Assembly: GCA_964627305.1 (NCBI GenBank)
Contig: CAZVHP010000005.1
Coordinates: forward strand, 162,458-226,457
DNA from: an uncultured Ignavibacteriales bacterium
GTDB lineage: Bacteria; Zixibacteria; MSB-5A5; GN15; FEB-12
Length of the DNA stretch: 64,000 nt
Direction of reading: 5' to 3'
The notes under the pieces were generated by a model that saw only the letters and a program-made list of their open reading frames with translations, searched no databases and was not told the DNA's origin. Of the stretch, positions 1,029 through 62,042 are shown in pieces. How positions within the stretch are numbered: position 1 is the stretch's first letter; every line of letters starts with the position of its first letter. Made by a program: the position numbers and the translations under genes.

Positions 1029-1034
1029 CGAAAA

Positions 1035-1119
1035 TGGTGGTGGGGGGAGGATTCGAACCTCCGAAGGCTTCGCCGACAGATTTACAGTCTGTTCCCTTTG
1101 GCCGCTCGGGAACCCCACC
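1035..1119 (-). tRNA. tRNA-Tyr (anticodon GTA), long variable arm, CCA encoded
   Basis: The reverse complement reads GGTGGGGTTCCCGAGCGGCCAAAGGGAACAGACTGTAAATCTGTCGGCGAAGCCTTCGGAGGTTCGAATCCTCCCCCCACCACCA. The acceptor stem is GGTGGGG/CCCCACC, the anticodon stem is ACAGA/TCTGT with loop CTGTAAA, and there is a TTCGAAT T-loop. Confidence 0.93.
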
Positions 1120-1229
1120 GATGTCTTATCTAACCATCGGCCGCTAACCAGCCGCAGTTTAGACCTCCTAGTTAATGCAATCGCCATCAAAAAGCAATGG
1201 AAAAACTTGGCTCAGAAACCGGACGAGAC

Positions 1230-2480
1230 CTATTCCACGTCCCGGTAATACCATGCCGCGACGGACTTCGACACCAACAGGAGACTCATAGCCCCCAATG
1301 TCGCCCAGGCCGCCCCGGTAAGGCCCATTCTTGGTACGAGCAGGCCGTTGCCTGCGATGGCTACAACCATAGCGACGATTCCGACACTAATGATGGCCCC
1401 GTCGCGTCGACGAACGAAAAGGGCGTAGTGCGGCACATATGACAGGCACAAGGCAACCACCGAGGCCACCATGATATTGAAGACATCCGCCTCGGCGGCG
1501 TACTCCGGACGGTCAAGCAGGCTCAGTACCGGCCGAATAAGAAAGAGCGCGGCAGCCGCGAGTACAACCGACAACCCCACGACTCCCCGCACCAGCGACC
1601 GACGGTTTCTCTGATAGTCCTCCACAGCGCGCATCTGATAACTGCTGATGAGCCTCGGGAACAGGACCTGGCAGACGCCGGTAAAGACGATTACATGTAT
1701 GACATTTGCCATTCCTGCAAAAAAGGTATACACCCCGACTGCTTCCTCGCCGTGGAAGTGCTGGAGGAAGTAGCGATCGGCATAGTTGAGCAACTGAAAC
1801 GACAGCGTGGCCATCAGAAACGGCAGCGCCGTTTTCATTCCCCTGCGAATCCAGGCAAAGTCAACGGGTTGCTTCCTGGCGGCGTCCCAGGGGAGAGTGC
1901 GCAGATGCGAGACAGCTATCGCCAGTCCGACCACCGCCCCGGCCGCCCAGCAGGTCCAGACAAAGGGCAGGTGGCGCAGATCCGGCAACACCCAGGCCGT
2001 CGCAATTACCAGCCACGCCCACATACCGCTCCGTATGAATATGACGAGATTGGCAGCGGTTGACCTGGACAGCGTCACCAGCAGTTGCACGCTCTCGTGC
2101 GAGGCATGTTCGAGCACCAGCAGCAGGTAGAACCACCCCACATACTTCCACGGTATCACCCCTCCGGCGAAGATGAGAAGCAGGGCTGGGAGAACGACAG
2201 CGTACGCACACAGATGATACACCAACTGATTACGTATCAGCGCCGGTCGTCGTTCGGGAGTCGCGGCAAGGATCTCGCGGGAATTGAAGATATGGAAATC
2301 GGAACTGAGCAGATACAGCCCTATGGCAATGGTGATGTTGATCAACCCCCAGATTCCCACCTCGGCCACCTCGAAGTGGCGCGCCAGGAATACCAGCAGC
2401 AGGAACTTGCTGAGTTGTGTAAGACCACGCAAAGTGACGTTGCAGGTGCCGGTGCGCCACATGGCTGTCTCAATCCGCAC
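1230..2480 (-). CDS. Oligosaccharide/polysaccharide flippase (MOP superfamily, Wzx-like)
   Basis: 416-aa polytopic membrane protein with about 12 hydrophobic segments. It lies directly downstream of and overlaps rfbD in a dTDP-rhamnose cluster. The family call is made from architecture and context. Confidence 0.6.
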   Translation of the reverse strand: MRIETAMWRTGTCNVTLRGLTQLSKFLLLVFLARHFEVAEVGIWGLINITIAIGLYLLSSDFHIFNSREILAATPERRPALIRNQLVYHLCAYAVVLPALLLIFAGGVIPWKYVGWFYLLLVLEHASHESVQLLVTLSRSTAANLVIFIRSGMWAWLVIATAWVLPDLRHLPFVWTCWAAGAVVGLAIAVSHLRTLPWDAARKQPVDFAWIRRGMKTALPFLMATLSFQLLNYADRYFLQHFHGEEAVGVYTFFAGMANVIHVIVFTGVCQVLFPRLISSYQMRAVEDYQRNRRSLVRGVVGLSVVLAAAALFLIRPVLSLLDRPEYAAEADVFNIMVASVVALCLSYVPHYALFVRRRDGAIISVGIVAMVVAIAGNGLLVPRMGLTGAAWATLGAMSLLLVSKSVAAWYYRDVE

Positions 2481-6816: not shown

Positions 6817-7392
6817 ATGACCAAAGGAAAGACCGGCAACGATATTGACAACATGATCGTGCGGGACCTGATGATTCCCCTTGAGCAATACCCAGTGATA
6901 TCAACCGAGGCAACCCTGCTTGATGCCGTCATTGCGCTGGAGGAGTCACTGGAGGCGCTGGGGCCGAATCGTCAGCCACACCGCGCCGTCCTCGTCGCCG
7001 ACAAGAACAATCGCATAGTAGGCAAGATCGGCCAGTTGACTCTGCTCAAATCTCTTGAGCCACAGGTCGACCTGGCCGGCGATGAGGAGCGTCTGGCTCG
7101 GGCCGGCGTCAGCCCCGATCTGCTGACCACTGTCAAGAAACACGCACGGGACCTGGAACTCAATCTGTCGGACATCTGCTCCCGCGCCAGTGCCATCCGG
7201 GCTAAGGATGTCATGGTGCGTACGGCGCATTCCATCGACGCAGCCTCGCCACTTGCCGACGCCGTGCATCGGCTTGTTCAATGGCAGCAGTTGTCGTTGC
7301 TGGTTTCGGAGAAATCGCAGATAGTAGGCATCATCAGGCTGTCTGACCTGTTTGAGCTTATCGTGGACAAAATTCGGGAGCAGGCGTCTTGA
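6817..7392 (+). CDS. CBS domain pair protein
   Basis: 191 aa with two CBS-like repeats (VRDLMIP...VISTEATLLDAVIAL...AVLVADKNNRIVGKI and AKDVMVRTAHSIDAASPLADAVHRL...SLLVSEKSQIVGIIRLSDL). A GAGGA RBS precedes the ATG. Confidence 0.75.
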   Translation: MTKGKTGNDIDNMIVRDLMIPLEQYPVISTEATLLDAVIALEESLEALGPNRQPHRAVLVADKNNRIVGKIGQLTLLKSLEPQVDLAGDEERLARAGVSPDLLTTVKKHARDLELNLSDICSRASAIRAKDVMVRTAHSIDAASPLADAVHRLVQWQQLSLLVSEKSQIVGIIRLSDLFELIVDKIREQAS

Positions 7393-7411
7393 GGCCGCCG
7401 GGAGTGACACC

Positions 7412-9445
7412 ATGCCAAAAATTCTGATTGTTGACGACGAGCAAACCTTCCGAAGGAATCTTGCGGACCGCCTCAGGATGCGCGACTACCCGGTGATGGA
7501 TGTCGGTACCGGTGAAGAGGCGATTCAGGCGATCAGGCAGGACCCTGAGATAGACATTGTTCTGCTGGATTTGAAGATGCCCGGTATGCGGGGCGATCAG
7601 GTACTCAGGGAGATGAAGTCTTTCCGGCCGGAGCTTCAGGTGATCATGCTGACCGGCCACGGTTCACTGGATTCCGCCATGGAGATCGGCCGACTGGATG
7701 CCTACTCGTACCTGGCCAAACCGTGTGACCTGGAAAAGCTCCTTGAAGTAGTCAACCAGGCACGTGAGGACAAGGTGCATGTGATGGCCCGTCACGAGGT
7801 CCCGCATGTGGAGCGTGGATCGCTTTGGGCCTGGCTCAAAGGGTCACATAATTCGCGTCCGGGGATTATTCTCCTCGGAGTGTTGATTCTGCTAACGATG
7901 GCGCTCATCCCCACTCCGCAGCGATTGATGACTCTGCTGTCGGCACCGAAGACGGGGGCAATAACTGACGCCAACATGGGTTTTGCCAGCTACCGGAAGA
8001 TGCCCGACGGCCAGAACATAGCCGATTACTACGCCACCAAGTACGGAATCGGTGAGACCGTGACGGGCGATGATGGCAAGAGGGTGTTTATCCCGGCCAC
8101 TCCCGAGCAGGTTGCGTTCAAGGCACGAATCATGCTGGGGCTTCTGATCGTCGCCGCCTTGTTCTGGGCCTCCGGAGCTGTGCCGGTGGGAATCACGGCA
8201 CTGTTCGTCGGTGTCATCATGTACTTTTTCGGGATACTCAAGCCGGACGAGATAGCTGCTGCCTATGCCAAGGACGCAGTCATCTTCATTTTCGGGGTGC
8301 TGGCCATAGCATTGGCAATTAGTAAGACCGGACTTGACCGGAGAATCGGATTGCTGTTGCTGGGGCCGGCCAAAACATTGCCGCGGCTGTTGTTCATCTT
8401 CCTTCCCCTGCTGGCGATGGCGTGCTCGGTAGTTTCTGAGCACGCACTCGTGGCCTTCATTATGCCGCTGTTCATGATGGTCTATATGCTGTCCATCCGG
8501 GCCGCCGGGGTCAAGCAGGATAAAGCCCTTGCGGTGATGCTGGCCCTCATACTGTGTTACACCGCCAACTCGGGCGGGCCGGGGTCTCCGGCGGCAGGTG
8601 GGCGGAATGCCATCATGATGGGGATACTGCAGGACTACAATGTTGCACCCTCGTTCGGCGAATGGGTCATGTACGGTATGCCGTTCGTGCCGGTAATGGC
8701 CATTGTGGTCGGACTGTATTTCTATCTTGCCCTTGGTCGGAAGATCAAGGTGAAGAACCTCAATGTCTCCGCGATTGTCAAACAGGCCTCTGAGAAGATC
8801 GGCCCAATGACCCGCAACGAATACCTCACGGCCCTGGTGCTGGCCGGGGTGATAGCTCTGTGGATTGGCGCCAGCGACACTTTCGGTATGGGTGGACCGG
8901 TCATACTGGGGATTGTGACGCTGAATGTAATGCGTATTCTGAAGTGGCGCGATGTCGCCTCAATTCACTGGGAGGTGGTGGCTTTGTATGCCAGTGCCTC
9001 GGCGCTGGGAAAGGGTCTGGCCTCCACCGGCGCCGCGCTCTTCCTGGCCGACAGTTTCCTGTCAATTCTGCCTGATTTCTTCAGCCAGGGAACGGGGCTG
9101 GCGATGGCCGCGAGCCTGTTCACCGGGCTGGCGACCAATTTTATGAGCGATGGTGCCACAGTTTCTGCCATCGGCCCCATCACGGTACCAATGGCGACAA
9201 TTTCCGGCACGCACCCATGGATGGTTGGTTTTGCCACCGCGTTCGCATCTTCGTTCGCCCACATGCTGATTATCGGGACTCCGTCGAACGCCATCGCATA
9301 CGCAATGGCCAAAGACCAGCGAACCGGGGAACAACTGGTCACGCTGGGTGATTTCATGAAGCATGGAGCGGCGGTGCTCGTACTCTCGTTCCTCGTTCTG
9401 TGGTTCTGGCTGTTCCTTGGGTATTGGCAGTTTATCGGCTTTTGA
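7412..9445 (+). CDS. Response-regulator receiver domain fused to a DASS/SLC13-type anion:cation symporter
   Basis: The N-terminus MPKILIVDDEQ...DIVLLDLKMPGM...LTGHGS...KP is a REC domain. It is followed by about 520 aa of polytopic membrane domain carrying two DASS-type hairpin motifs (NSGGPGSPAAGGRNAIM and IIGTPSNAIAYA). The start is set at ATG 7412, preceded by GGGAG. Confidence 0.8.
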   Translation: MPKILIVDDEQTFRRNLADRLRMRDYPVMDVGTGEEAIQAIRQDPEIDIVLLDLKMPGMRGDQVLREMKSFRPELQVIMLTGHGSLDSAMEIGRLDAYSYLAKPCDLEKLLEVVNQAREDKVHVMARHEVPHVERGSLWAWLKGSHNSRPGIILLGVLILLTMALIPTPQRLMTLLSAPKTGAITDANMGFASYRKMPDGQNIADYYATKYGIGETVTGDDGKRVFIPATPEQVAFKARIMLGLLIVAALFWASGAVPVGITALFVGVIMYFFGILKPDEIAAAYAKDAVIFIFGVLAIALAISKTGLDRRIGLLLLGPAKTLPRLLFIFLPLLAMACSVVSEHALVAFIMPLFMMVYMLSIRAAGVKQDKALAVMLALILCYTANSGGPGSPAAGGRNAIMMGILQDYNVAPSFGEWVMYGMPFVPVMAIVVGLYFYLALGRKIKVKNLNVSAIVKQASEKIGPMTRNEYLTALVLAGVIALWIGASDTFGMGGPVILGIVTLNVMRILKWRDVASIHWEVVALYASASALGKGLASTGAALFLADSFLSILPDFFSQGTGLAMAASLFTGLATNFMSDGATVSAIGPITVPMATISGTHPWMVGFATAFASSFAHMLIIGTPSNAIAYAMAKDQRTGEQLVTLGDFMKHGAAVLVLSFLVLWFWLFLGYWQFIGF

Positions 9446-17263: not shown

Positions 17264-17396
17264 ACTGTGTTTGCAAGGCTGAAAGAATACTGCAGTAGCC
17301 CCGACAGGTCCTTTGGCCGACCGCTTTCGGGGTTCGAATGTGCACGGAACTTGTATAATGATGACAACCCACATGAACCATGAAAGGTAGCCTACC

Positions 17397-18221
17397 GTGA
17401 ATCTGTCACGATACCGAATCGCCGTTTGTGTTCTGGTAGCATTACTGGGCGCCGCTTCGATGGCGACGGCGGCACCACGCCTGGATATCGAAGGAGACTC
17501 TTTCGATTTCGGCTTCGTACCGCAGAATTCCAAGATCACGCACTCCTTCTGGCTGAAATCGACAGGCGATGACACGCTGCGGATTGTCCGCGTGGTGCCT
17601 GGGTGAGGGTGCACGCAAGCGCCCTTGCAGAAGGACGCTATCGCTGTCGGTGACAGCGCAGAGCTTGAGATTATTTTCGACACGAGGCAGTACAACCGGA
17701 AGATGTCCAAACGACCGAAGATCATTACCAATATCGGTCCGCCGGACAAGCACGTTGCCATTAGTTGTACGCCGGTGGTGCGACCGGATTCGACATATCC
17801 GATCACCTTCAACCCGTACAAGCTTGATCTGACTCAGTTCGGCGAGAAGGTACGCGAGAATGTTACATTCGATATTACTAACGTCTCCGATCAGAAGGTC
17901 CAGTTCGAAGTCATTGCCACCCGCGATAATCTGTGGGAGATCGAGTTGCCGAAGTCGATTGATCCGGGAAAGACGAAGAAGGCAGTTCTCAAACTCACCA
18001 GGCAGGGTTTGGAGCAATCCTTCGAGAAGTCATTTACCATCCAGGTGAACGATGAGAACAAGAGCCGCTTCACAGTCCCGGTTAAGCGGTCAATCCATAC
18101 TGCTCGTCAGCACCGAGTCGTGACCCCCGCGACGACGACCAACCCGACAAGCGCGACTGGTACTGAGGGAAAAGCCGGCACCGGATCGACACAGAAAGAC
18201 AAGGGCAAAGGCGGCAAGTAG
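17397..18221 (+). CDS. DUF1573 domain protein, paralogue 2, with one in-frame TGA (17604-17606) at the conserved Cys position. Either a candidate selenoprotein or a recent pseudogene.
   Basis: Track ORFs 17397..17606 and 17625..18221 share a frame. The joined product reads ...FDFGFVPQNSKITHSFWLKSTGDDTLRIVRVVPG[TGA]GCTQAPLQKDAIAVGDSAELEIIFD... and is collinear with paralogues 1 and 3. Confidence 0.6.
17607..17658 (+). promoter_or_regulatory. Candidate SECIS-like hairpins downstream of the in-frame TGA
   Basis: GGGUGC-ACGCAA-GCGCCC (17607-17624), or alternatively GCAAG-CGCC-CUUGC (17615-17628), and CGCUGUC-GGU-GACAGCG (17642-17658). Folded by eye only. Confidence 0.3.
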
Positions 18222-18439: not shown

Positions 18440-19909
18440 TTACTCGCCCTCGAACTCGGTGAAACCGCTCCTGAGGAGGTTCTCCCACGCTTGGTTGTAG
18501 ATCTCGCCATAGACGTTGGAGTGTACCAGACGGAAGTCGAAGTTTCCGGACCAGTCTTCGAAAATAAAGTACTTCCCCTCACGCATGCGGTGGTAGTACC
18601 ACACCTGATACGGATTGCCCGCTCGAGGAGCTTGCTTGTCCGTGATTTCATCGTAGAACCCGTAGGTCATCAGTACTCGTCCACGGTCGGTTGACCAGCC
18701 GTTGTCTCTGCCGGGATTGTTAGAGAACATCCTGTTCGCGTATCGCCAGAGCTGGATCGCCGCTATGCGGTTTTCGATCACGGAGGTTGCCGGATCTTCA
18801 TCGTTTTCAATCCAGAACTGCCTCAGGAAGTTCTGCTTTCCTTCGTCATTCAACCCCTTGAGGATTTCTCGCTGCTCCTCGCCTATGGACCAGTAGCTAA
18901 CCTGCACCTTCTGTTCGACACTCAGCGTGTCGTAGGGGTCCAGCACAGCTCCGGGGGTCCTGGCAAACTGCACGAACTGCTGCGATACAATTCGCACCGG
19001 TACCATAACCGTGTCACTCTGCCCACCCTCAAGGTCGCTGGCAACAATGCGAATCCTGTAACCTCCGGACGGCCACGAACTGATATTCAGTGTCTGGGCG
19101 ATTGAGGCATTCTGGCCCGGCACATCCATGACACGACCACCGAAGTTCTGATAAAACACGCCATCATCCCCATAGGCCTCAAAGGAAATGCGCCAGCGTG
19201 TCGTCCGATCCTCGTCATAGTCGAGGTTGTACACTTCGCCGAAGATGTAAGCAATTGAGTCTCTGTCGGCGTAGGTACCCGTGGGATTCGGGATGACAAG
19301 ATAACCATTGCGAAGCAACCTCTGATTAGGCCCGTCGTAACCCGGGCCGGCGTAGCTGATTCTGAAGGCTGTCTGCACACCCGCCAGTTCAAGCCGGTCG
19401 CGCTGAGACGGTTCCACCAGGATTTCGGACAGGAAGTATTCGCCATCACGCTTGGACACGGCATCGATAACAGTCACGCGAGCAGCGTACGTGCCGGGCT
19501 TAACCGTCAGCGCCAGCTTGTCAAAGACCATGTGGTCTTCGATTGCAGCCTCTGCCGAATCACTCACCTTGAGCGAGAAGTACGTGTTTGCCGAATCGAT
19601 GACCCAGCCGTCTTCGTCGTATAGATCGACCTGGGCAAACACTCGTCCGTACCAGGACGAATCGACTGAATCCGGACGGAAGAAATCAAACTGATTCCGA
19701 TTCATTCCGAACGGAAACTCGACCACGGCTACACTGTCATACACGGGGTTGTTATAGACCACAGCTGAGGCGTACACGCCTATCTTGCTTTTCTCCGATG
19801 CTGACACAGCCGAGGCTGCACAAAGCAGAACCAGCATCGACAGCAGAACTGAAGGCCTGAGTCTTGAAAGGATAGCCTTGTAGGTCGCATTGAGTATCAG
19901 CTTCTTCAT
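18440..19909 (-). CDS. GWxTD domain-containing secreted protein
   Basis: The C-terminal region GRDNGWSTDRGRVLMTYGFYDEI...NPYQVWYYH matches the GWxTD domain pattern. The start is set at MKKLILNA (ATG 19907-19909) with a signal peptide, because the longer track ORF overlaps the upstream gene. Confidence 0.75.
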   Translation of the reverse strand: MKKLILNATYKAILSRLRPSVLLSMLVLLCAASAVSASEKSKIGVYASAVVYNNPVYDSVAVVEFPFGMNRNQFDFFRPDSVDSSWYGRVFAQVDLYDEDGWVIDSANTYFSLKVSDSAEAAIEDHMVFDKLALTVKPGTYAARVTVIDAVSKRDGEYFLSEILVEPSQRDRLELAGVQTAFRISYAGPGYDGPNQRLLRNGYLVIPNPTGTYADRDSIAYIFGEVYNLDYDEDRTTRWRISFEAYGDDGVFYQNFGGRVMDVPGQNASIAQTLNISSWPSGGYRIRIVASDLEGGQSDTVMVPVRIVSQQFVQFARTPGAVLDPYDTLSVEQKVQVSYWSIGEEQREILKGLNDEGKQNFLRQFWIENDEDPATSVIENRIAAIQLWRYANRMFSNNPGRDNGWSTDRGRVLMTYGFYDEITDKQAPRAGNPYQVWYYHRMREGKYFIFEDWSGNFDFRLVHSNVYGEIYNQAWENLLRSGFTEFEGE

Positions 19910-19925
19910 TGTTCCCTTCCAGTAA

Positions 19926-21266
19926 TCAAAAATCCGGACGTTGCCCCCGACCGTCATAGGGGTACTGCAGACGGTAGTCGCCATCAAGATTGAGATCGAC
20001 AAAGGTGAATTTGCGATAGATGCCGTCGCGGTAATAGTGCCACTCCTGATACGGCACACTCGACAGCGAATAAGGGTAGTCATCGATCTCATCAGGCTCA
20101 CCGTGGCTGATGTAGATGCGTCCCCTGTCGGTCTTCCATCCCTCGCGGGTCATATGTCCGAAGCTCTCGTTGGCAACTCGCACGCGCCGGTAGAACTCGG
20201 TCTTGATCTCATTGGTGGTACTTCCGGGCGTCGGGTCAAGCTTGTTCCAGAACTCGTTGAACGCGGTCCGTCGTTCTTCGACAGTCTCAGCCTTCTTGAG
20301 TTCGTCTACTTCCTTGCGACTGGCAATGTATGAGATCTGCTCCACCAGCGTCTCATAGTCCTGATCCATGAGGCTTTCGACGGACCAGTAAACAGCGAAC
20401 TCTGCTCGCTGCCTGTCAAGCGTTCGGAGTCGACGGCCGAGCAATGACACCTCCAGTTCGTATTCTCCCGGGTCGAAGCCATCAACCGTGATGTTGCGCA
20501 GTTGCCGAGTAATCGGCTCGGTCAATTCGGTATGGAGCGAGTCTCGGTAGACCATGGAGCGGTTCTTCTTGCGTATCAGGGTCTCGACAACGACACTTTC
20601 GATGTCGGAGCTTCCGCGATAGATTTCGACATAGAACAACAGGGGATTGTCACCATCGCCCCCATAGCCATGATTCAAAGAAGGGACGACTACCATATTG
20701 CCCTTGTGAAATGCGCTGTGCTCGGCCTGCGTGGAATCCCAGGAACCAACGGCCTGGACCATCTCTATATCTGAAAGTCGGGGCGGCTTATCCCACCGCG
20801 GTGTCAAATCAACCTCGAAGTCGTGAGTATGAGTCGGCCCGCCATCGAGACTGCGGAGGGTTGCCCTGATCTTGTACCTCCCGGGCTGCAGAAGGAAGTT
20901 TGCCTGGTCAGTGCGATAGTCGAGGGCCGAGCGACCGGCGTCGGCCACCCGCACCGTTCCCTCCTTGGTGTATACATCGCCGGGCTGACCGCTTCTGCCC
21001 TGAACGTCTATCCTGACGTAGTAACGAGCCTGATCTACCCTGTCCTGCTTCTTGAACTTCAGCGCGTTGTTGAAGAACTGGAAATACACTTCAAGCCGAA
21101 CGAGCGAAGAATCCAGCGTGGAGAACTGCGCCCAGTCGACCAGAAACTTGGCGTTGTTGTCCGGTGTCTTCGTGACGATGCGCCCGGCCTGCGCCGACGT
21201 TCCCGCCAATCCCACGACCAGTAACGTCACCAACACCAATCTGAGTAGAGTATTCTTCATAGACAT
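19926..21266 (-). CDS. GWxTD domain-containing secreted protein
   Basis: Signal peptide (LVLVTLLVVGLAGTSAQA) and C-terminal REGWKTDRGRIYISHGEPDEIDDYP...VPYQEWHYY. Confidence 0.78.
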   Translation of the reverse strand: MSMKNTLLRLVLVTLLVVGLAGTSAQAGRIVTKTPDNNAKFLVDWAQFSTLDSSLVRLEVYFQFFNNALKFKKQDRVDQARYYVRIDVQGRSGQPGDVYTKEGTVRVADAGRSALDYRTDQANFLLQPGRYKIRATLRSLDGGPTHTHDFEVDLTPRWDKPPRLSDIEMVQAVGSWDSTQAEHSAFHKGNMVVVPSLNHGYGGDGDNPLLFYVEIYRGSSDIESVVVETLIRKKNRSMVYRDSLHTELTEPITRQLRNITVDGFDPGEYELEVSLLGRRLRTLDRQRAEFAVYWSVESLMDQDYETLVEQISYIASRKEVDELKKAETVEERRTAFNEFWNKLDPTPGSTTNEIKTEFYRRVRVANESFGHMTREGWKTDRGRIYISHGEPDEIDDYPYSLSSVPYQEWHYYRDGIYRKFTFVDLNLDGDYRLQYPYDGRGQRPDF

Positions 21267-53117: not shown

Positions 53118-53897
53118 TCACACACCGAGTACTTCGCGTTCGTGCTCGAAGCGAGAAGGCTTCAGCTTGATCAACCACCCCTCGCCATAGGTATCCTGGA
53201 GAGCGGCACCGGGATGGTCAACGACCCGTTCGTTGACTTCGACAACCGTGCCGGACAGGGGTGACTGCACCGGATGCGAGCGCATATCAGAGGTGAATAT
53301 CTGCATAAACACGCTGCCCTGACGGATCTCATCGCCGACAGTTGGCAAATAGACGTTCTGCACCTTGCCGATGGTCGACACGAACGCGTGCTCCACACCA
53401 AGCAGTACCAGACCGTCGGTCTGCATCACCATCCAGCAATGATCGCCAACCGAGGTGAGCCTGCCGGTCAGGCCATCGGAGGTTCTGTCAGTCGCATCGG
53501 ATTTGCCATCGACACAATCTGAGCCCCGCACCAGTTCGGCGGCACGGCCAACAACCGCCAGCAGTTCCTTTCGGGAAAATGGCTTGGCGATATAGTCGAA
53601 CGCCCCCAGTTGAGTCGCCTGCAGGGCGGTGTTGATTGTGGCATAGCCCGTAATCATGATGACCGGTATGCAGGGATGGGCCTCGCGTACTTTGCGCATA
53701 AACTCCAGGCCATCGATCTCCGGCATCATCAAGTCGGTCAGGACAATATCGATCTTCTCCCGGTCAATCACATCCAGCCCGTCCTGAGCCGACAGCACCG
53801 TCCTGATCTGGTACTCTTCTTTGCCGAGATGCTTGCTGACGCTGTCGAGCACGATTTGCTCGTCATCGACAACCAGTATGGTCATGTCGCTGGCCAT
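53118..53897 (-). CDS. Response-regulator receiver domain fused to a glycine-cleavage-H-like (GcvH-like) domain lacking the lipoyl-lysine
   Basis: REC: ILVVDDEQ...DIVLTDLMMPEIDG...ITGYAT...KP. C-terminal: GDHCWMVMQTDGLVLLGVEHAFVSTIGKVQNVYLPTVGDEIRQGSVFMQIFTSDMRSHPVQSPLSGTVVEVNERVVDHPGAALQDTYGEGWLIKLK follows the GcvH pattern, but FTSDM replaces ESVKA. Confidence 0.75.
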   Translation of the reverse strand: MASDMTILVVDDEQIVLDSVSKHLGKEEYQIRTVLSAQDGLDVIDREKIDIVLTDLMMPEIDGLEFMRKVREAHPCIPVIMITGYATINTALQATQLGAFDYIAKPFSRKELLAVVGRAAELVRGSDCVDGKSDATDRTSDGLTGRLTSVGDHCWMVMQTDGLVLLGVEHAFVSTIGKVQNVYLPTVGDEIRQGSVFMQIFTSDMRSHPVQSPLSGTVVEVNERVVDHPGAALQDTYGEGWLIKLKPSRFEHEREVLGV

Positions 53898-55795: not shown

Positions 55796-56761
55796 TCAGG
55801 ACGAGGGGAAGTCGGCATCCAGCATATCGGTATAGTCTTCAATCACCTGTGCCATGCTCTCATAGTATCCGGTGGGCTGAATGGTGAAATGCTTCAAAAT
55901 GCGAGCCAGCCGGTCGGTGACATACGGGTATATCTTCTGCAAGTTCATGATCCGATATTCATAGAACGCTCCGGCGTCGGCGCGCGACAGACTCTTCTTG
56001 ATCTCTTCGGGGATATCCCGGCTGTCCAGCACTGACTTGAACGAGAGTATCCCCTTGGCGAGCGCATAGTTGAAGATATTCCCGATACTCCAGACATCGA
56101 AGTCCGCCACATTCTGGTTCAGGTCGAAATCGATCCACCGGAAGCAACCGGAATCCGAATCCATGATTATGTGATCGTTGCGAATATCGCCATGACACGT
56201 CCCGTTCTGGTGCAGAAACTCAATGGCCTCCAGACACGGCAGCAGCTTGCGAAGAATCCACGGGAGGTCCTGGAAGAAATACTGACGGTGCGTCTTGTTG
56301 ATGTTGTGAATCATGTTGAACAGGCTCTGCCCCCGGATGAAGTCAATCACACGAACGTGGTTACCGGCAGCATCGGTGGTCGTGTATCCCTGCATGAAGC
56401 GATGATCCCCGCGCACCAGGTCAAGCACCTGCGCTTCCTTCTCGGGACTGCGGTAGCAGTGAACGCGAAATACACCGATGTGCACGTGGAAGTCCTCGTG
56501 GAACTCTGTCTTGAGGATCTTCTGCTGACCATTGTCAAGCTGATATGCTCCCAGCACCCAGTACTTCGGCTGGTCACCAATGCCGAACCGTGTTTCATAC
56601 TTGTGGCCGGTTATGAGGAACTGCCGACCATCGAGACAGAGTACATCGCCACGCGTGATCCGCATGGTATCGGTGGTGTCCTCGATGATGTTGGGCGGCG
56701 GCACCATCGCCCAGCCCGTCAACTCCCTGATGCGCTCCGTAAGCTGCTTTTTGTCCATCAT
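55796..56761 (-). CDS. Protein-kinase-like fold protein with atypical catalytic motifs
   Basis: The catalytic-loop-like HGDIRNDHII and IDFD (in place of DFG) are present. A candidate beta3 Lys lies in QKILKTEF. There is no GxGxxG loop. Confidence 0.55.
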   Translation of the reverse strand: MMDKKQLTERIRELTGWAMVPPPNIIEDTTDTMRITRGDVLCLDGRQFLITGHKYETRFGIGDQPKYWVLGAYQLDNGQQKILKTEFHEDFHVHIGVFRVHCYRSPEKEAQVLDLVRGDHRFMQGYTTTDAAGNHVRVIDFIRGQSLFNMIHNINKTHRQYFFQDLPWILRKLLPCLEAIEFLHQNGTCHGDIRNDHIIMDSDSGCFRWIDFDLNQNVADFDVWSIGNIFNYALAKGILSFKSVLDSRDIPEEIKKSLSRADAGAFYEYRIMNLQKIYPYVTDRLARILKHFTIQPTGYYESMAQVIEDYTDMLDADFPSS

Positions 56762-56954
56762 AGACAGGCCTCGACAACGCCGGTTGGTTCAGGATTCGGT
56801 CGGCCGGGTTTGCCGGTAAGCTATGGCCGTTGGTTACTGGCCGCAAGGTTTAAACACCAGCGACGCAACCATAACTCGTGGTCGGCACAGAAGAGCGGCT
56901 GACCCGACCGGATCAGCCGCCGCATAACACCCAATGTGCTTCAATCGCCCCGGA

Positions 56955-57410
56955 TCAGCATGGGCACGGCGACGGTCCGCCGCTGAACAGAAAAGCGATC
57001 AGGTAGGTCATATCTGTGATATTGATGAGGCCGTCGCAGTTGACATCACCGTGCGCATGAAGACACGGTGCAAGACCACCACTGAAGAGGTACGCGATCA
57101 GGTAGGTCATATCTGTGATATTGATGAGGCCGTCGCAGTTCATGTCACCACGGAGAGTGCACCCACCGGAGCCGGCGGCGAAGACTTGCCAAAACCCCTG
57201 ATTGAGTGCGTAGCTGGCAGAACCGACCGTCCCCACCGCCGCCTGACCGACCGTTCCTGAAAGCGAATAGCTCGCCGATGACATACTGCCCCCACCGCTT
57301 CCGATCACGTACCAGTCGATCGTTTCACCGGTCTTGCTCTCCGCCTGCGCAGAGCCGATCAGCATCAGCAGACATGCAACGATAGCACCAGCGTTCAGAA
57401 TATGCGTCAC
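56955..57410 (-). CDS. Small secreted protein with two dockerin-like repeats
   Basis: Signal peptide (ACLLMLIGSAQA), a Gly/Ser-rich module SGGGSMSSASYSLSGTVGQAAVGTVGSASYALNQGFWQ, then GDMNCDGLINITDMTYLIAYLFSGG and GDVNCDGLINITDMTYLIAFLFSGGPSPCPC. Confidence 0.75.
   Translation of the reverse strand: MTHILNAGAIVACLLMLIGSAQAESKTGETIDWYVIGSGGGSMSSASYSLSGTVGQAAVGTVGSASYALNQGFWQVFAAGSGGCTLRGDMNCDGLINITDMTYLIAYLFSGGLAPCLHAHGDVNCDGLINITDMTYLIAFLFSGGPSPCPC
56995..57140 (-). repeat. Intragenic direct repeat: two identical 47-nt copies, 99 nt apart
   Basis: GCGATCAGGTAGGTCATATCTGTGATATTGATGAGGCCGTCGCAGTT occurs at 56995-57041 and 57094-57140. It encodes the two dockerin-like repeats. Confidence 0.9.
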
Positions 57411-57422
57411 AACCCGCTCCTC

Positions 57423-58703
57423 TTACCTCGACGTTAGCTCACCCGTAATTCTACTATCGGCCTTTTCTGCTGCCAGAAGCACCCTGACCAACTGAGAAAG
57501 CTCCGACACCTGCTCCTGCAGTTCGTCCAACTTCAGGCTCATCTGCTCCATCTGCCGGACTTTGCTGGCCAGTTCCTGCTGGGTCCGGTCCAACTCCTTG
57601 ATCGCCGCCAGGGCAACACCGGCAGGGTCAATCGAGGAAATCGCGGTGCTGTCCTGACCCACACCGAAGGCGGCGCGGAAGTCCTGTGCCGTCGGCCCGA
57701 TATGCGTAATCTCAGGGGTCTGGCTCTTGTAGTTCCATCTCAATATATCCACACTCTGCAGTTGTAGCAAGATCTCCCGACCGCTCACCCTGGCGAAATT
57801 CTCCTTGAGGTTCCTGTCAGAGGCGTTCGTCCAGTCACCACCTTCGGACAGGTACGCCCCGACAATCGTGTTGATCAGTTTGTCGGGTTCGTATGATGCT
57901 GTCCCACCCGTGTTCGTAACGAAGATGCCGCCGTCAGCGCGAATGACCACCTGTTCGGCACCACCGGTGCCGATGAAATCCCCTCACGTGACGCAGTCAT
58001 TGGCAGCAAGTACAATGCAGCCATCGTGCGCCGCATTGCCGTTGTTGCCCATCGCTAACGACATCAGTCCGGCCGCCTGACATCCCTTGCCTCCCGGGAC
58101 CGATGAATACGCACCGGCGGCAACATTGTTGGTACCCGCCAGCACGCCGGAGTAGTCGCCGTAGGCATAGTTATCGAATCCGCCGATGACGGCTGAGTTG
58201 TCACCCAAAGTGCTGTTGCCGGCTCCGGCACAGAAGGCGGACTTGCCGGGATTGTAGTTGGAACTGCCCACAGTCAGCTTATCGCTGATGACCAGATCGC
58301 CCTTGATCGATCCCGCCAGAGCGCCATCCACCGAGGCCACCTTGAACGCAAATGGCACGGTCACAAGCTGGGCTCGCGGCGAGAGTTCTGCCGCACCGTT
58401 GACGCTGACTCCGAGCCAGCACAAACTGTCTGCGAAGAGGCCGACGTCCAGTGGAGTGAGTGCTCCCAGACGGGTGCTGAACAAACCATCAGCAATCTGC
58501 ATACCGCTTTGCGTTTCCTGCCAAATGGCCGTGCCACCAACAGGATCGTTATACAATGAAAAAGTCAGGTTGTGATTGCCGCTGACCGGATCGCCGCTGC
58601 TGTCATACAGCATCCCTTGGTAGGAGATCTGTGCCGGTACCCCGGCATAGATGTTGAGGGCCAGCAGGACAACACCGCCCAGGGCCAGAAGAATCGCTCG
58701 CAT
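57423..58703 (-). CDS. Tail-fibre-type surface protein (YadA-head-like repeats plus C-terminal S74 intramolecular-chaperone domain) with one in-frame TGA (57984-57986)
   Basis: Track ORFs 57984..58703 and 57423..57950 share a frame. The junction reads ...NAAHDGCIVLAANDCVT[TGA]GDFIGTGGAEQVVIRADGGIFVTNTGG. The C-terminal SDRNLKENF...HIGPTAQDF...IDPAGVALAAIKEL plus a coiled coil is the S74 chaperone pattern. The N-terminal piece has the signal peptide and the C-terminal piece has none. Confidence 0.55.
57955..57973 (-). promoter_or_regulatory. Candidate SECIS-like hairpin after the tail-fibre TGA
   Basis: On the minus strand UCGGCACC-GGU-GGUGCCGA, an 8-bp perfect stem with a GGU triloop, beginning 10 nt after the TGA. 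Folded by eye only. Confidence 0.3.
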
Positions 58704-58920
58704 GTTATGCCTCCATAGGTGATGAATCTCGATGACCCTGAGGTCAGGGCCATGTGGTGTAATGTTCGGTCGTAGTCGTGGCGGGCTATACTCGGCGGCT
58801 CAACCGATGTCAGGCCGGCGCACAGTCACTGGCAGTAGATCTGTGTGAATCTCGGTCGGACGTCAGGAAACGGTTGCGGTAATTCCGATACTCAACTGCC
58901 TTCGACCCGAGCAGCCAGGA

Positions 58921-60108
58921 TCAAAACGTCAGCGAGACGCCAGCAGCGGCCGTGACATCTTCGTAGTCATACAAGATGTGGTTGGACGAGTTGCTGGTGT
59001 AGTCAACACTGACACTCAGCCGAAGAATGCTGCCTGCCACTGAACAGGGACGTTCGACACTCACGTAGGTGCGGCGCTGGTTGTCGACGCGTTCAACGAA
59101 CGTCCAGAAGTCTACCATAACCGATCCTCGCTGCTCGGCACGAATCTCCCACGCCGGCAAATACTCCCGGTGCCAGTACCCCGCACCCCAGGTCAGGATG
59201 ATCCGGGGAATCATGAAGGTCTTGATGTTGACGGAGAAGGAGTAGCCCTCCCAGACCGAAGACCACGGCGACACAACATCCGAGTTAATCCCCTGAACGG
59301 TCTTGCTGCCGGATTGGGGTAGCTTCCGCCACGTAACCGTGGCGCTGATCCCGGTTCTGTCACCAAGTGGCCGCGAGAACCGCTTTGACATGTACAGCAG
59401 ACTAAGGGCTTCAGAGTCGTCGGCTTCGGTCGGCGTGAGGAAGCTCGCCTGAACGACACTCGGATCTGACAGTGTATCACCGGTGATACGGTGGACAAAC
59501 AGCCCCGTCATGAAGGTTGCCCTCGTCAGGGAGACACCAAACTCCCCGTCTATGACATTGCGGCCAGGAAGCGTCCAGTTCAGCCCCCCGAACACATCGT
59601 ACTCGCTGCGATCAAGATCATCAGAATTCCCATAGGCCGTCCGGCGCACACTTCCCCCGGCCCTCAGGCGCAGGTTGTCGGCAGGAGCTGTCCCGGCGGT
59701 AACGGTCAGCGCTCCATCGCTGTTGCTGTACTCGTCGAACGCATCCCGATATTCCTGGTGATCAAGGCGGCCTTCCATGACAACCGATACTCCGTCATCG
59801 GACTGGCGTGGAATAAACGACACGGCCACTCCCCCGCGAAAGTTGGACAAGTCCTCAAGTTCCGTCAGACCGCTGTCGAGACCGTAGTAGAACGTATACT
59901 GCCCAGTGAGCGAAATCTCCATAGTGGGCACCGGGTACAACCGGAGCGCCGCGCGCGGGTTGGTGTACCATGCAGCAGCCTCACCGGCGTTCTTCAGCAG
60001 GTTGGAGGTATGGGCCTGATCGAGACCGAATTCCAGTTCGGCTCCGGTTGCTTTGCCCGAGGAGCAGACCAGCAAGGCTACCGAGAGAAGTATTGCGATA
60101 CATCTCAT
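58921..60108 (-). CDS. Outer-membrane beta-barrel-like protein, unknown function
   Basis: Signal peptide (LLVCSSGKATGA), alternating amphipathic beta-strand pattern with frequent aromatic girdle residues, and a C-terminal ...AAGVSLTF ending in Phe. Confidence 0.5.
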   Translation of the reverse strand: MRCIAILLSVALLVCSSGKATGAELEFGLDQAHTSNLLKNAGEAAAWYTNPRAALRLYPVPTMEISLTGQYTFYYGLDSGLTELEDLSNFRGGVAVSFIPRQSDDGVSVVMEGRLDHQEYRDAFDEYSNSDGALTVTAGTAPADNLRLRAGGSVRRTAYGNSDDLDRSEYDVFGGLNWTLPGRNVIDGEFGVSLTRATFMTGLFVHRITGDTLSDPSVVQASFLTPTEADDSEALSLLYMSKRFSRPLGDRTGISATVTWRKLPQSGSKTVQGINSDVVSPWSSVWEGYSFSVNIKTFMIPRIILTWGAGYWHREYLPAWEIRAEQRGSVMVDFWTFVERVDNQRRTYVSVERPCSVAGSILRLSVSVDYTSNSSNHILYDYEDVTAAAGVSLTF

Positions 60109-60117
60109 CCGGCGGCC

Positions 60118-60558
60118 TCAGAAGCAGATGCCACCGACACAAACCTTGCCGGAGGCGCCCGCAGCTATGCCGTTTCCGGGGCCGAAATCCTCCCCGGCGT
60201 AGAAACCACCCCGGAACGTGCCAAGATCGCGCACCGTACTTTGGCGCAGCTTGAAGCGTTCCTGCCGCGAAAGTCCAGCCAGCAAATCAGCCGACTTCAC
60301 CTCGACAGCGTCAAACATACCGGCGATCTGAGTGCCACCTGCGGCTAGGAACGGAGTCTCACCGGACCTGCCGCCGGAGAACTCATCGGGGATGCCATCG
60401 TTGTTGCTGTCGGTCAGGTTGTCGTTGATGCCATCGCCGTCTAAGTCCACGAACCGAGCGGCTACAGACCCGGCATTCGGACTGCCGACTGGACACACGA
60501 ACAGAAACAGCAGGAAAGTCAGAATTGCGGTTGCATACCTCGCCATCATCCACTCCAC
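60118..60558 (-). CDS. Small secreted protein with Asp-rich Ca-binding-like repeats
   Basis: Signal peptide, DLDGDGINDNLTDSNNDGIPDEF (TSP3/EF-hand-like DxDxDG repeats), and a Cys-containing C-terminus VCVGGICF. Confidence 0.5.
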   Translation of the reverse strand: MEWMMARYATAILTFLLFLFVCPVGSPNAGSVAARFVDLDGDGINDNLTDSNNDGIPDEFSGGRSGETPFLAAGGTQIAGMFDAVEVKSADLLAGLSRQERFKLRQSTVRDLGTFRGGFYAGEDFGPGNGIAAGASGKVCVGGICF

Positions 60559-60659
60559 GATACTGAGGCCCGGGCAAGGACGTTAACCTGTCTTCGTTGC
60601 GACCGGGCCAGATTCACGTACTCAGCTAGCTCAGCGATCTATTCAGAGACCCGCTCAGA

Positions 60660-62042
60660 TCAGAAGCACACGGGAGCAGGCCCGCCACTGAAAAGAAAGC
60701 TGATCAAGTACGTCATGTCACTAACATTTACTACCGTATCATTGTTGACGTCGGCAGCACCGGGGAACAGAGGCGCCGGACCGCCACTGAAGAGATACGA
60801 GACCAGAAATGTCATGTCCGAGACGTTGACCCCGTCATTCTGGCCGTTGACATCGCCACACAGGTACGTGGTCACCGACTTGGTCTCCGTCCAGCCGGAC
60901 TCTTCCTCCCATTGATCGCGAGCTTTGACCATAACCTCGAAACTGCCCGAACCTGGGAACTCATAGGTGTGCTCGCACACGGTATTCGAAGCAAATGGGC
61001 CAACCCAGCCGCTTGTCTCTCCGTTGCCGTAATCAAACATGAAATGAACTTCGTTGCCGTCGGGATCGGCGGCGTAGGTCTGGAAAGTCAACGTCTCCCC
61101 TGCCGCCAGCGTAGTCTTGTCAAGATTCAGGGTACCAGGAGTCTCAGGTGGCGAGTTCTGCTGGTTGCTGATGGTAACGGTTACTTTGATTTCATTAGTG
61201 CCGACCCAGTCAGTTTGAAGTGTCATGTCCAGATCGTGCACGCTGCTGCGCTGACCGGCGGCAAGGATGGCATTTCGGTAACTTGTCTCGTTGAAGTCAC
61301 TGGCCCCGACGACAACACCATGCCCACCATCGAAATACACTGTGGGAAAGCCAGCGAGATTGAACTCTTCGACGCGCTCAGCCGCGAGCGGGTTCTTGTC
61401 ATCGACCAGCGCGACATAATACATCGGATAGTCACCCGAGCCTTTGATAGAGCGGAGACGACCGGCGGCATAGGGACAATATCCACACCAGGTAGCTGTG
61501 GCCTGCTCCAGAAATACACCATGATTGCAGCCGCCAAAGGCGGTATCGCGCGCCACCTGCCCCGGAGCGGCTTCGGCGGCGGCGTCAACCCAGTACGCCG
61601 TGAACGGATAGCCCGCAGGTGGATAGGAGTAGCCCGTGTGCGCGGTGGCGTTGAAGACCGCGGCGACGGCAACAATGTTCGTTTGCTGAATATTCCCGAA
61701 CCCGGCCACAGCCGAATTCCAGTTGGCTTCGTACGTCACGGTGTCGAATTGCGAGAGACTCAGGACCTCGGTAAGTGCGAAATCAAGAAACGGCATCTCG
61801 TAGGGGCTACCCCAGGCGTCAAACCAGTTCTTTGATGACTGGTACTCGGCTACGTACACCTTCAGCGTACCTTGGTAATCGCCGGATCGTTCAGCCACCG
61901 ACCCTTGAGCAGTCGGACGATTCGCGTCTGCTGGGTCAAGATCCGGACGCATCTCGAAATCCTGGGCGGTAAACGCTGTCACACCCAGCAGGGCGATCGC
62001 TGCCGCCACTGCCAAGACATAAGACTTAGCATTGTGCATCAT
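60660..62042 (-). CDS. Secreted thioredoxin-like (CGYC) / PKD-like / dockerin-like protein
   Basis: Signal peptide; ATWCGYCPYAAGRL...FNLAGFPTVYFDGG (Trx fold with a cis-Pro); PKD-like DPDGNEVHFMFDYGNGETSGW; C-terminal GDVNGQNDGVNVSDMTFLVSYLFSGGPAP and ADVNNDTVVNVSDMTYLISFLFSGGPAPVCF. Confidence 0.7.
   Translation of the reverse strand: MMHNAKSYVLAVAAAIALLGVTAFTAQDFEMRPDLDPADANRPTAQGSVAERSGDYQGTLKVYVAEYQSSKNWFDAWGSPYEMPFLDFALTEVLSLSQFDTVTYEANWNSAVAGFGNIQQTNIVAVAAVFNATAHTGYSYPPAGYPFTAYWVDAAAEAAPGQVARDTAFGGCNHGVFLEQATATWCGYCPYAAGRLRSIKGSGDYPMYYVALVDDKNPLAAERVEEFNLAGFPTVYFDGGHGVVVGASDFNETSYRNAILAAGQRSSVHDLDMTLQTDWVGTNEIKVTVTISNQQNSPPETPGTLNLDKTTLAAGETLTFQTYAADPDGNEVHFMFDYGNGETSGWVGPFASNTVCEHTYEFPGSGSFEVMVKARDQWEEESGWTETKSVTTYLCGDVNGQNDGVNVSDMTFLVSYLFSGGPAPLFPGAADVNNDTVVNVSDMTYLISFLFSGGPAPVCF

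Follow-up and report, generated by a model that had tools for sequence, protein, structure and literature searches.

A conserved in-frame UGA and a SECIS-like stem-loop point to selenocysteine in an S74-chaperoned surface fibre

To our knowledge, the great majority of bacterial selenoproteins are redox enzymes or resemble thioredoxin, and nearly all of them were found through the Cys that their homologues carry at the selenocysteine (Sec) position. In SelB/SECIS recoding of the Escherichia coli fdhF type, the minimal element lies 11 nt from the UGA and requires a G-U in its loop. In phage Qbeta, the leaky UGA of the A1 protein is read as Trp, so that a short and an extended structural product are made; unlike the gene described below, this system has no requirement for a SECIS-like hairpin, and the comparison bears only on read-through as a rival explanation. 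The bacterial SECIS consensus consists of a stem of 4–16 bp with a loop of 3–9 nt (PMC13188914, Fig. 2 legend), at least one G within the first two bases of the loop, mostly G then G or U, a distance of 16–37 nt from the UGA to the loop, and a minimum free energy of −7.5 kcal/mol or lower (PMC13188914). DUF1573 proteins with a UGC motif form one of the catalogued selenoprotein families (PMC13188914).

Fibres with an S74 domain are the other described systems close to this locus. S74 domains are intramolecular chaperones for the chain to which they are fused, S74 fibres need the domain to fold, and SDxxxK is the S74 catalytic motif; in the S74 subgroup of the mosaic adhesive trimer (MAT) fibres of Bdellovibrio, self-cleavage at SDxxxK exposes the tip (PMC10769870). 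In the literature, no in-frame UGA is reported for MAT or phage S74 proteins, and an S74 fibre family with Sec is absent from the 2026 selenoprotein catalogue. The nearest likeness in that catalogue is to envelope selenoproteins, for example a TonB-dependent receptor of the FCYXU type (CxxU) and a GSU2204/MtrB-like outer-membrane protein. They show that Sec is possible in exported proteins without a thioredoxin fold, but their folds and families are unrelated to the fibre.

Herein, we analyzed a window of 64,000 nt, that is, the whole stretch of DNA under study. Translation of the minus strand revealed that the ORFs 58703..57984 and 57983..57423 form one frame, with the TGA at 57986..57984 as the sole interruption. 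The first ORF starts with ATG, encodes 239 aa and terminates at this TGA, and the codon at 57983 starts an in-frame stretch of 186 codons through to the TAA at 57425..57423. The recoded CDS (57423..58703, minus strand) thus has 426 sense positions plus the terminal TAA, a single internal stop on translation, and the UGA, the proposed Sec codon, at position 240. The architecture of two orthologous loci, L001 and L002, was identical. Read from the sequence, a GGAGG ribosome-binding site is located at 58710..58714 on the same strand, 6 nt before the ATG at 58703.

The domains of the product were assigned by profiles, alignments and the AF2 monomer model of a homologue, P0009 (mean pLDDT 75.6); all coordinates are on the minus strand. 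Residues 1–21 (MRAILLALGGVVLLALNIYAG, 58641..58703) resemble a signal peptide, as judged from their sequence, and an equivalent hydrophobic N-terminus was present in both orthologues. A beta-rich N-terminal module with the I-x-YQG-x-L motif follows (residues about 22–125, 58329..58640, by profile and alignment), in which ISYQGML matches the family consensus YQGxL (PxxxxYQGxL); the corresponding module of P0009 is modelled with pLDDT 85–97. Gly/Asn-rich beta-helix repeats of the GGxxNxA type, defined by the repeat consensus of the homologue alignment, occupy residues about 140–235 (57999..58286), and homologues of the fibre protein had matches to PF05658 (YadA head) or PF21300. The Peptidase_S74 intramolecular chaperone, a self-cleaving domain (57666..57821), was matched by Pfam PF13884 at residues 295–346 of the fused protein (E 6.3e-9, 36.4 bits against a cutoff of 22). 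Its S-D-x-x-x-K motif reads S295-D-R-N-L-K300, with Ser295 at 57819..57821 and Lys300 at 57804..57806; among 32 homologues, W291 and K300 were invariant and S295 nearly so. A long helix or coiled coil with a heptad-like sequence closes the chaperone domain (residues about 365–412, 57468..57611), and the equivalent segment of P0009 is one helix (residues 438–489). The sequence features listed in an earlier note on this DNA were all present.

The order of signal peptide, beta-rich N-domain and beta-helix, seen in the sequence and in the P0009 model, agrees with the MAT layout, whose N-domain spans about 130 aa. As in MAT fibres and phage S74 spikes and fibres (K1F endosialidase, T5 pb1), a putative signal peptide precedes a beta-rich N-domain and a beta-helix, which would be trimeric, and an S74 domain with SDxxxK stands at the C-terminus. 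Unlike MAT fibres, it has about 426 aa instead of about 1000 aa and comes from a Zixibacteria/Ignavibacteria-type MAG, not from a predator. NCBIfam NF053851 (Bdello_MAT_N) matched residues 13–83 with E 1.5e-7 and 31.4 bits, below its cutoff of 60; by profile comparison, the fibre protein is related to the Bdellovibrio MAT family (NF053851) but is not filed as a member. The genes near the fibre encode dockerin/PKD surface proteins, a kinase-like protein, a histidine kinase and a response regulator. These neighbours rule out a prophage tail fibre, the setting being chromosomal with no phage genes nearby.

Public gene calls divide the CDS into two hypothetical proteins of 239 and 175 aa, and database clusters contain only the split pieces. 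Such calls, together with the purifying selection found on both parts, would agree with a true stop and two polypeptides, the downstream one being re-initiated at a non-canonical start soon after the UGA. The TGA column was identical in six independent assemblies (the window, L001, L002, L162, L163 and L164), which derive from different samples and represent three species with 71–76% amino-acid identity; a neutral codon would be expected to be identical in all three about 1.4% of the time. Synonymous divergence between the species was saturated (dS 1.1–1.9). The dN/dS values were 0.09–0.13 upstream of the TGA and 0.12–0.16 downstream, and 0.04 in the first 22 codons after it. No ATG, GTG or TTG downstream of the TGA was conserved, the first one lying 11, 21 and 71 codons on in the three species, yet selection is strong directly after the stop. 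Re-initiation was therefore rejected.

The GTG at 57948..57950, which gene callers use as the downstream start, is the only canonical one in the window allele and is not a real start. It is GTT in L001 and L002, and the 11 codons ahead of it are conserved as protein. The earlier note had found no obvious ribosome-binding site for it, and indeed no purine-rich stretch precedes it. Another GTG overlaps the stop (GUGA) but lies in a different frame that closes after 17 codons, by which both a frameshift and a start at this GUGA were rejected. Furthermore, the downstream piece has no signal peptide, in agreement with the earlier note, and S74 chaperones act on their own fused chain. We consider two separate polypeptides very unlikely. 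All three species retain the TGA, the reading frame and the protein encoded beyond it, with a dN/dS of 0.04 in the 22 codons after the TGA and without a conserved start. These comparisons establish that the two ORFs are one gene whose downstream frame is translated, and the same proposal of the earlier note is upheld. Every public record presents the gene as a pair of "hypothetical proteins", so that the annotation is wrong both for the fibre and for the conserved five-gene surface cluster that surrounds it.

A single internal stop is also the commonest sign of a pseudogene or of an assembly or sequencing error. However, the six assemblies share the same TGA, and the window's own allele was present on at least 24 contigs. 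Additional disabling mutations, which the earlier note had named as a finding that would speak against its proposal, were not found: no further stop or frameshift occurs downstream of the TGA in any of the three species, and the frame stays intact at dN/dS 0.12–0.16 while synonymous sites are saturated. We put the probability of decay or error close to nil, and on the evidence of these alignments both are excluded.

The junction reads ...AANDCVT-TGA-GDFIGTGGAEQVVIRADGGIF, and the peptide would be ...LAANDCVT-U-GDFIGTGGAEQVVIR if the UGA is Sec. Alignment revealed that the block H.G..V.A.. followed by ..RA.GG.. is common to the junction and about 70 uninterrupted homologues, which bears out the order that the earlier note had described for intact proteins. 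The sequence C-V-T-UGA (57984..57995, minus strand) creates C-x-x-U, from Cys237 to position 240. The note had drawn attention to this CxxU-like arrangement, and TGC..TGA was kept in 6/6 assemblies. It had also known of no homologue with a conserved Cys at the UGA column, and the same held for the about 70 aligned homologues, which carry T, Q, G, I, L, P, D or a gap. In homologues the column belongs to a variable, often gapped loop, and in the P0009 model the equivalent residue, Q320, lies within a segment (315–332) with pLDDT below 50. The alignment of this column, suggested earlier as a check, gave a divided answer: distant homologues have unrelated residues or gaps, and the true orthologues all have TGA.

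Among 161 homologous loci, the in-frame UGA was confined to this orthologue group. Cys237, at −3, occurred only in the TGA-bearing orthologues, and the nearest intact homologues hold Ser. Protein-seeded scans of genome and metagenome contigs returned only relatives of at most 50% identity, except L006, which is the L002 contig; neither a closer orthologue with a sense codon nor a Cys form was found in these scans. An exact degenerate-pattern scan for the GGAEQVVIRADGGI coding motif, a pattern that does match the window and the fetched loci, gave no match in metagenome contigs, a collection evidently without these samples.

If a near-cognate tRNA for Trp, Cys or Arg decoded the UGA, in programmed or leaky read-through that the stem-loop might aid, a major product of 239 aa and a minor full-length product bearing the chaperone would result, and their ratio could matter for assembly. 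In homologues the UGA column is a variable loop where many residues, or none, are tolerated, so that whichever amino acid is inserted would suffice. The lack of a Cys homologue is in line with read-through; conservation of the UGA and translation of the frame behind it fit read-through as well as they fit Sec. However, read-through does not explain why the Cys at −3 co-occurs with the UGA, and the major product would be without the domain that S74 fibres need for folding. We know of no established bacterial mechanism of hairpin-stimulated read-through.

Downstream of the UGA, we found the hairpin UCGGCACC-GGU-GGUGCCGA (57955..57973, minus strand), a candidate for the SelB-binding part of a bacterial SECIS. 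It begins 10 nt past the TGA and has 8 perfect pairs and a GGU loop, exactly as had been noted before. The energies of the hairpin alone were −13.2, −10.5 and −11.0 kcal/mol in the three species, and 0/200 shuffles of the window hairpin (−13.2 kcal/mol) folded equally well. Compared with the SECIS consensus, the 3-nt loop and 8-bp stem in 6/6 sequences, the invariant G-G-U, the 18 nt from UGA to loop (a 10-nt spacer plus an 8-nt arm) and the range of −10.5 to −13.2 kcal/mol all agree. Among 427 codons aligned in the three species, four or more identical ones in a row occur at the hairpin alone. The hairpin is conserved at synonymous sites and also codes for the conserved peptide IGTGGA. The two changes in its 3′ arm yield G-U pairs. 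Among about 90 homologous junctions, it ranks in the top few.

RNAalifold analysis of the six sequences predicted an extended stem-loop from the UGA onwards (57939..57987, minus strand). Its 17 pairs are distributed over three helical segments, the basal one of which contains the UGA. All 102 of the 102 pair cells were standard pairs, versus 29–70% when the partners were slid. Six pairs vary and all are still paired, five by one-sided changes and one by a two-sided change; the shuffle control for covariation was not significant (98/500), the six sequences holding too little variation. The folding z-scores of 63-nt stretches were unremarkable (−0.5 to −1.3), and only the apical hairpin stood out. 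Rfam gave no match in the region at the gathering threshold, and at E up to 10 only a chance-level match to Streptomyces-metK (E 2.4). An intrinsic terminator was rejected, as no U-run follows the hairpin. The arrangement resembles that of the fdhF type in that a stem-loop starts at the UGA and an apical hairpin, with a small loop beginning G-G-U, follows about 10–11 nt after the UGA. It differs in having no evident bulged U in the upper stem and no Cys homologue, and its decoding is predicted.

A second in-frame UGA was found in a DUF1573/OS_HP2 gene (17391..18221, plus strand), which matched Pfam at 1.9e-25 and NCBIfam NF041425, "OS_HP2 family (seleno)protein", at 7.7e-22. Its TGA lies in VPG-U-GC-T, at a column with Cys in 99 homologues and TGA in 21 forms. 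The sequence AVGDS, encoded by the hairpin GCUGUC-GGU-GACAGC, was present in 21/21 TGA forms versus 11/99 Cys forms (Fisher 9e-16), and both TGA and hairpin are kept in the same sister species as the fibre TGA. When both strands of the window (128 kb) were searched, exactly two GGT-triloop hairpins of at least 6 bp were found, each sitting just 3′ of the fibre or the DUF1573 TGA; the chance of this is about 4e-4 to 8e-4. The two genes belong to the same organism, encode secreted proteins and share UGA-GG followed by a perfect hairpin with a GGU triloop closed by C-G. They differ in that the Sec of the DUF1573 protein, in a U-G-C motif, replaces the Cys of the 99 homologues, whereas the fibre has C-x-x-U.

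The use of Sec by the organism is thus indirectly supported by the DUF1573/OS_HP2 gene of the window and of the sister species. The scanned window ORFs included none of selA, selB, selC and selD, and the window has no tRNA-Sec. With at least one catalogued selenoprotein gene in the organism, a UGA with a consensus-type SECIS hairpin at canonical spacing would be expected to recruit SelB, which speaks against read-through; we regard read-through as unlikely.

In the databases, part of the DUF1573 entries have W in the TGA column, and the gene caller therefore applied a UGA-reassigned code. A genome that reads every UGA as Trp or Gly (codes 4 and 25) would account for such entries. However, UGA ends 9 of the 24 long ORFs in the window, including both genes flanking the fibre, only two in-frame UGAs in the 64 kb have protein-level support, and the G+C content is 54–59%. 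Scans of codon usage and of GC by position for further in-frame UGA cases in the window returned only the DUF1573 gene. The probability of reassignment is negligible.

The SECIS-consensus hairpin, its conservation at synonymous sites, and the selenoprotein gene of the same organism, which carries the window's only other such hairpin, make Sec the best option. Selenocysteine is the probable reading of the UGA at position 240, where it would complete a C-x-x-U motif close to the tip of a trimeric fibre that is MAT-like and has an S74 chaperone. Since three diverged species keep both the UGA and the RNA stem-loop directly behind it, the surface fibre gene is most likely a new kind of selenoprotein and not a broken gene. 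Of the three readings that the earlier note had left undecided, the pseudogene is gone, Sec has moved to the front, and read-through stays as its main rival. Some observations count against Sec. The fibre protein has no homologue with Cys at the UGA column, and nearly all accepted selenoprotein families known to us do have such Cys forms; no sel genes occur among the scanned window ORFs; covariation in the stem-loop is weak; Rfam has no match in the region; the in-frame UGA is confined to three species; and the hairpin lies 10 nt from the UGA in the fibre gene but 35 nt from it in the DUF1573 gene.

If Sec is inserted, the one gene would yield a secreted, trimeric, tail-fibre-like surface protein. 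Its signal peptide would be followed by the MAT-like beta-rich N-domain and the Gly/Asn beta-helix, and the S74 chaperone at the C-terminus would cut itself off at Ser295. At the UGA, the stem-loop would present to the ribosome the 8-bp hairpin, its GGU loop starting 18 nt downstream. SelB with Sec-tRNA would bind the hairpin and deliver Sec in competition with release factor 2. The resulting C-V-T-U would stand 55 residues before the self-cleavage site, which would place it in the distal end of the mature fibre, presumably at its tip. When no Sec is inserted, translation would end at the UGA and the product would lack the chaperone needed to trimerise, so completion of the fibre would depend on selenium. 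C-x-x-U may have a selenylsulfide or other chemical function. Were its role non-enzymatic, the motif might act as a selenylsulfide staple or link between chains, capture a thiol or metal ligand on a target surface, or serve as a switch by which selenium supply decides whether the fibre is completed.

Tentatively, Sec may have arisen here without a Cys ancestor, together with the new Cys at −3, where a variable loop would lie exposed at the distal end of the fibre, and with a non-enzymatic role; the fibres would then be a bacterial family of structural or adhesive selenoproteins listed in no catalogue. Should this be true, searches for Cys/Sec pairs miss part of the selenoproteome, and structural or adhesive proteins can acquire Sec de novo. 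Selenium availability may also control a cell-surface structure in Zixibacteria/Ignavibacteria-type sediment bacteria. Two further cysteines inside the repeats, Cys158 and Cys208, are specific to the orthologue group, and the homologues hold V/I and N, respectively, in these columns.

The upstream ORF of the fibre gene (58703..57984, minus strand; 239 aa) starts with ATG, carries GGAGG 6 nt before the start and terminates at the TGA at 57986..57984, past which the same frame continues for 186 codons up to the TAA at 57425..57423. The N-terminus, as read from the translation, is hydrophobic and signal-like. In the fused translation, Pfam matched Peptidase_S74 at residues 295–346 (E 6.3e-9, above the Pfam cutoff), and the catalytic motif S295-D-R-N-L-K300 was on nearly invariant and invariant columns of the family alignment. 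The earlier note on this DNA, which had described two ORFs sharing a frame and separated by one TGA, an S74 domain downstream of it, and an 8-bp hairpin with a GGU loop beginning 10 nt past it (57973..57955, minus strand), was correct on all points. All public records enter the gene as two hypothetical proteins.

A protein search with the 239-aa product revealed two orthologue clusters with 76% and 71% identity, both exactly 239 aa long. Their contigs, from two sister species, were syntenic with the window and shared the gene order PKD/dockerin, small protein, ~395-aa protein, fibre, dockerin protein, kinase-like protein and PAS histidine kinase. Both orthologues had one TGA at the same column as the window, followed by an uninterrupted in-frame S74 part with no further stop or frameshift; the earlier note had named additional disabling mutations there as a refutation. 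Three more assemblies from other samples had the same TGA, and CACGTGAGGGGA and ATCGGCACCGGTGGTG were unchanged in all six independent sequences. In a set of 161 homologous genomic and metagenomic loci, the TGA occurred in this orthologue group only. In a homologous S74 fibre locus (L118, about 833..1285, plus strand), the FVWAD motif had lost its conserved Trp (TGG to TAG), which is probably a pseudogene or error unrelated to the UGA case.

Synonymous sites were saturated between the three species (dS 1.1–1.9), and the dN/dS of the fibre was 0.09–0.13 before the TGA and 0.12–0.16 after it. This downstream constraint, together with the recurrence of the same TGA in six independent sequences, argues against a pseudogene or error. 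Genome-wide UGA reassignment was ruled out, since UGA terminates 9 of the 24 long ORFs in the window, including both genes flanking the fibre. Pseudogene, error and code change are, even jointly, hardly credible. The GTG at 57950 that gene callers take as a start corresponded to GTT in the two sister species. The nearest canonical start after the stop was 11, 21 and 71 codons downstream in the three species, and the dN/dS of the first 22 codons past the TGA was 0.04. Because the GTG is not conserved, no start is shared and dN/dS past the UGA is low, these comparisons indicate that the post-UGA sequence is read in the same frame and extends the upstream protein. Translation as two separate polypeptides is thus very improbable. 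The single-gene argument of the earlier note held, with the TGA under selection and the frame and downstream constraint kept in three species.

The hairpin caps an extended stem-loop of 49 nt (57987..57939, minus strand; RNAalifold, six sequences), which starts at the UGA and holds it within its basal helix. Across 427 aligned codons, only 32% of the conserved, degenerate codons were identical in all three species, and the only run of at least four identical codons, ATC GGC ACC GGT GGT, made up the hairpin's 5′ arm and loop. The 3′ arm carried two substitutions, GCC to GTC and GCC to GCT, each of which left a G-U pair. All 102 pair cells of the stem-loop were standard pairs, compared with 29–70% with slid partners; six pairs varied and all remained paired, one having changed on both sides. 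The covariation shuffle test was not significant (98/500), as variation among the six sequences was too small. An Rfam search of the element gave no match. The published bacterial SECIS consensus comprises a loop of 3–9 nt, a stem of 4–16 bp, a G in the first two loop positions, a UGA-to-loop distance of 16–37 nt and an energy of −7.5 kcal/mol or lower (PMC13188914); the fibre hairpin, which alone reached −13.2, −10.5 and −11.0 kcal/mol in the three species, agrees with it on every count. When ~90 homologous junctions were compared, the three TGA-bearing sequences were within the top four SECIS-type hairpins, and ~5% of the TGA-free control junctions approached them.

Neither sel genes nor tRNA-Sec were found within the 64-kb window. 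A DUF1573 gene in the window served as an internal positive control for Sec use (pieces 17391..17603 and 17607..18221, plus strand; Pfam 1.9e-25; NCBIfam NF041425 'OS_HP2 family (seleno)protein', 7.7e-22), with the TGA at 17604..17606 in VPG-U-GC-T and a hairpin at 17642..17658. Gene callers split it into two. The 'UGC' form of DUF1573 is catalogued as a selenoprotein family (PMC13188914 Table 1; PMC9312934). At the Sec column, 99 of 120 homologues had Cys, 4 had W and 17 ended just past the column. The four W entries (P0129, P0132, P0140 and P0173) read VPGWGCT with Trp exactly at the Sec column, most likely a TGA translated by a caller that used a code with UGA=Trp; some public protein sets would thus conceal selenoproteins as W. 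AVGDS, equivalent to the hairpin GCUGUC-GGU-GACAGC, was encoded by 21/21 TGA forms versus 11/99 Cys forms (Fisher 9e-16, a contrast weakened since TGA forms may share phylogeny). The TGA and hairpin were invariant in the fibre gene's sister species, and a more distant relative (L032, 16509..17135, plus strand) had the TGA with GCUGUC-GGC-GACAGC. These gene comparisons indicate that the lineage uses Sec. The L032 form adjoins a Cys paralogue, and L045 (13375..13157, minus strand) has a TGA form whose hairpin differs (UUCCCC-CGGGC-GGGGAA), with a similar spacing of about 35 nt; both loci are from other genomes of Ignavibacteria/Zixibacteria type. The DUF1573 GGU loop begins 42 nt past the UGA, slightly beyond the consensus distance, and a second hairpin (17605..17626) begins inside the UGA.

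Exactly two perfect-type GGT-triloop hairpins of at least 6 bp were present on both strands of the window, one behind the fibre TGA and one 35 nt past the DUF1573 TGA. Shuffled sequence gives ~1.9, so the count is unremarkable; the chance of both being placed behind TGAs was roughly 4e-4 to 8e-4. Both UGAs are directly followed by GG.

The earlier note had suggested looking for Cys or TGA at the UGA column. TGA was found in all orthologues, but ~70 uninterrupted homologues showed no conserved Cys, the column being a variable, often gapped loop with T, Q, G, I, L, P or D. Such a Cys-free column would be unusual for a selenoprotein and equally compatible with read-through by any amino acid. However, every TGA-bearing orthologue had a Cys three residues before the UGA (C-V/A-T-U), where the nearest intact homologues had Ser, as expected had a C-x-x-U pair evolved jointly. 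Read-through by a standard tRNA is unlikely, and the fibre UGA is probably decoded as Sec. Cys158 (58230..58232, minus strand) and Cys208 (58080..58082, minus strand), also confined to the TGA-bearing group, stand in for a core V/I and for the Asn conserved in a GGxxNxA repeat; the two may be joined in a second disulfide that arose together with C-x-x-U.

The fibre begins with a putative signal peptide, followed by a beta-rich N-domain that bears YQGxL, beta-helix repeats of GGxxNxA type, the S74 chaperone and a C-terminal long helix, in agreement with the S74 subgroup of Bdellovibrio mosaic adhesive trimer (MAT) fibres and with phage S74 tail spikes. In these proteins, the chaperone enforces trimerisation, self-cleaves at the SDxxxK serine and bares the binding tip (PMC10769870). 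The NCBIfam MAT N-domain model matched residues 13–83 below its cutoff, and the fibre was therefore treated as MAT-like, not as a member. Position 240, 55 residues ahead of the cleavage serine, would fall in the mature fibre's distal region. In the AF2 model of an intact homologue (P0009), the equivalent loop (residues 315–332) had pLDDT <50. We propose that SelB loaded with Sec-tRNA would bind the GGU hairpin once the ribosome is at the UGA, Sec being inserted in competition with RF2. Full-length chains would bear the chaperone, trimerise and self-cleave, and chains stopped at the UGA, without it, should fail to assemble. Any chemical role of C-x-x-U is likewise putative. The mechanism is already known; what is new is the protein family and the lack of a Cys counterpart. 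No tail-fibre, S74 or adhesin-type family is listed in the 2026 prokaryotic selenoprotein catalogue, and full-text searches turned up no link between selenoproteins and tail-fibre or S74 domains.

The fibre neighbourhood is chromosomal, with other exported proteins carrying dockerin and PKD domains and no phage genes among its neighbours. The surrounding cluster (55796..62042, minus strand), conserved in three species, may encode a surface apparatus. It includes a PKD and dockerin protein (60660..62042), a 146-aa Asp/Gly/Asn-rich protein, the fibre, a kinase-like protein, a 395-aa protein with no family match, and a 151-aa dockerin protein whose N-terminus is weakly like a CPR pilus protein (PamT, E 2e-4). 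The lineage's taxonomic label is uncertain: the only NCBI genome with a fibre orthologue is labelled 'uncultured Ignavibacteriales bacterium', and named fibre and DUF1573 homologues nearly all carry a Zixibacteria label.

Elsewhere in the window, one gene joins a response-regulator receiver domain to a glycine-cleavage H-protein (lipoyl-type) domain, an unusual output domain (53118..53897, minus strand; also conserved in the sister-species locus L001), and an N-terminal receiver domain is fused to a Na/sulfate-symporter/CitMHS-type transporter (7352..9445, plus strand). At 18440..21266 (minus strand), a GWxTD-domain ORF (19926..21266), which stops at TGA with 57 open codons beyond, overlaps by 176 nt in a different frame a 553-aa ORF (18440..20101; GTG start, no family match); a wrongly called start of the second ORF, or a frameshift, may explain this.
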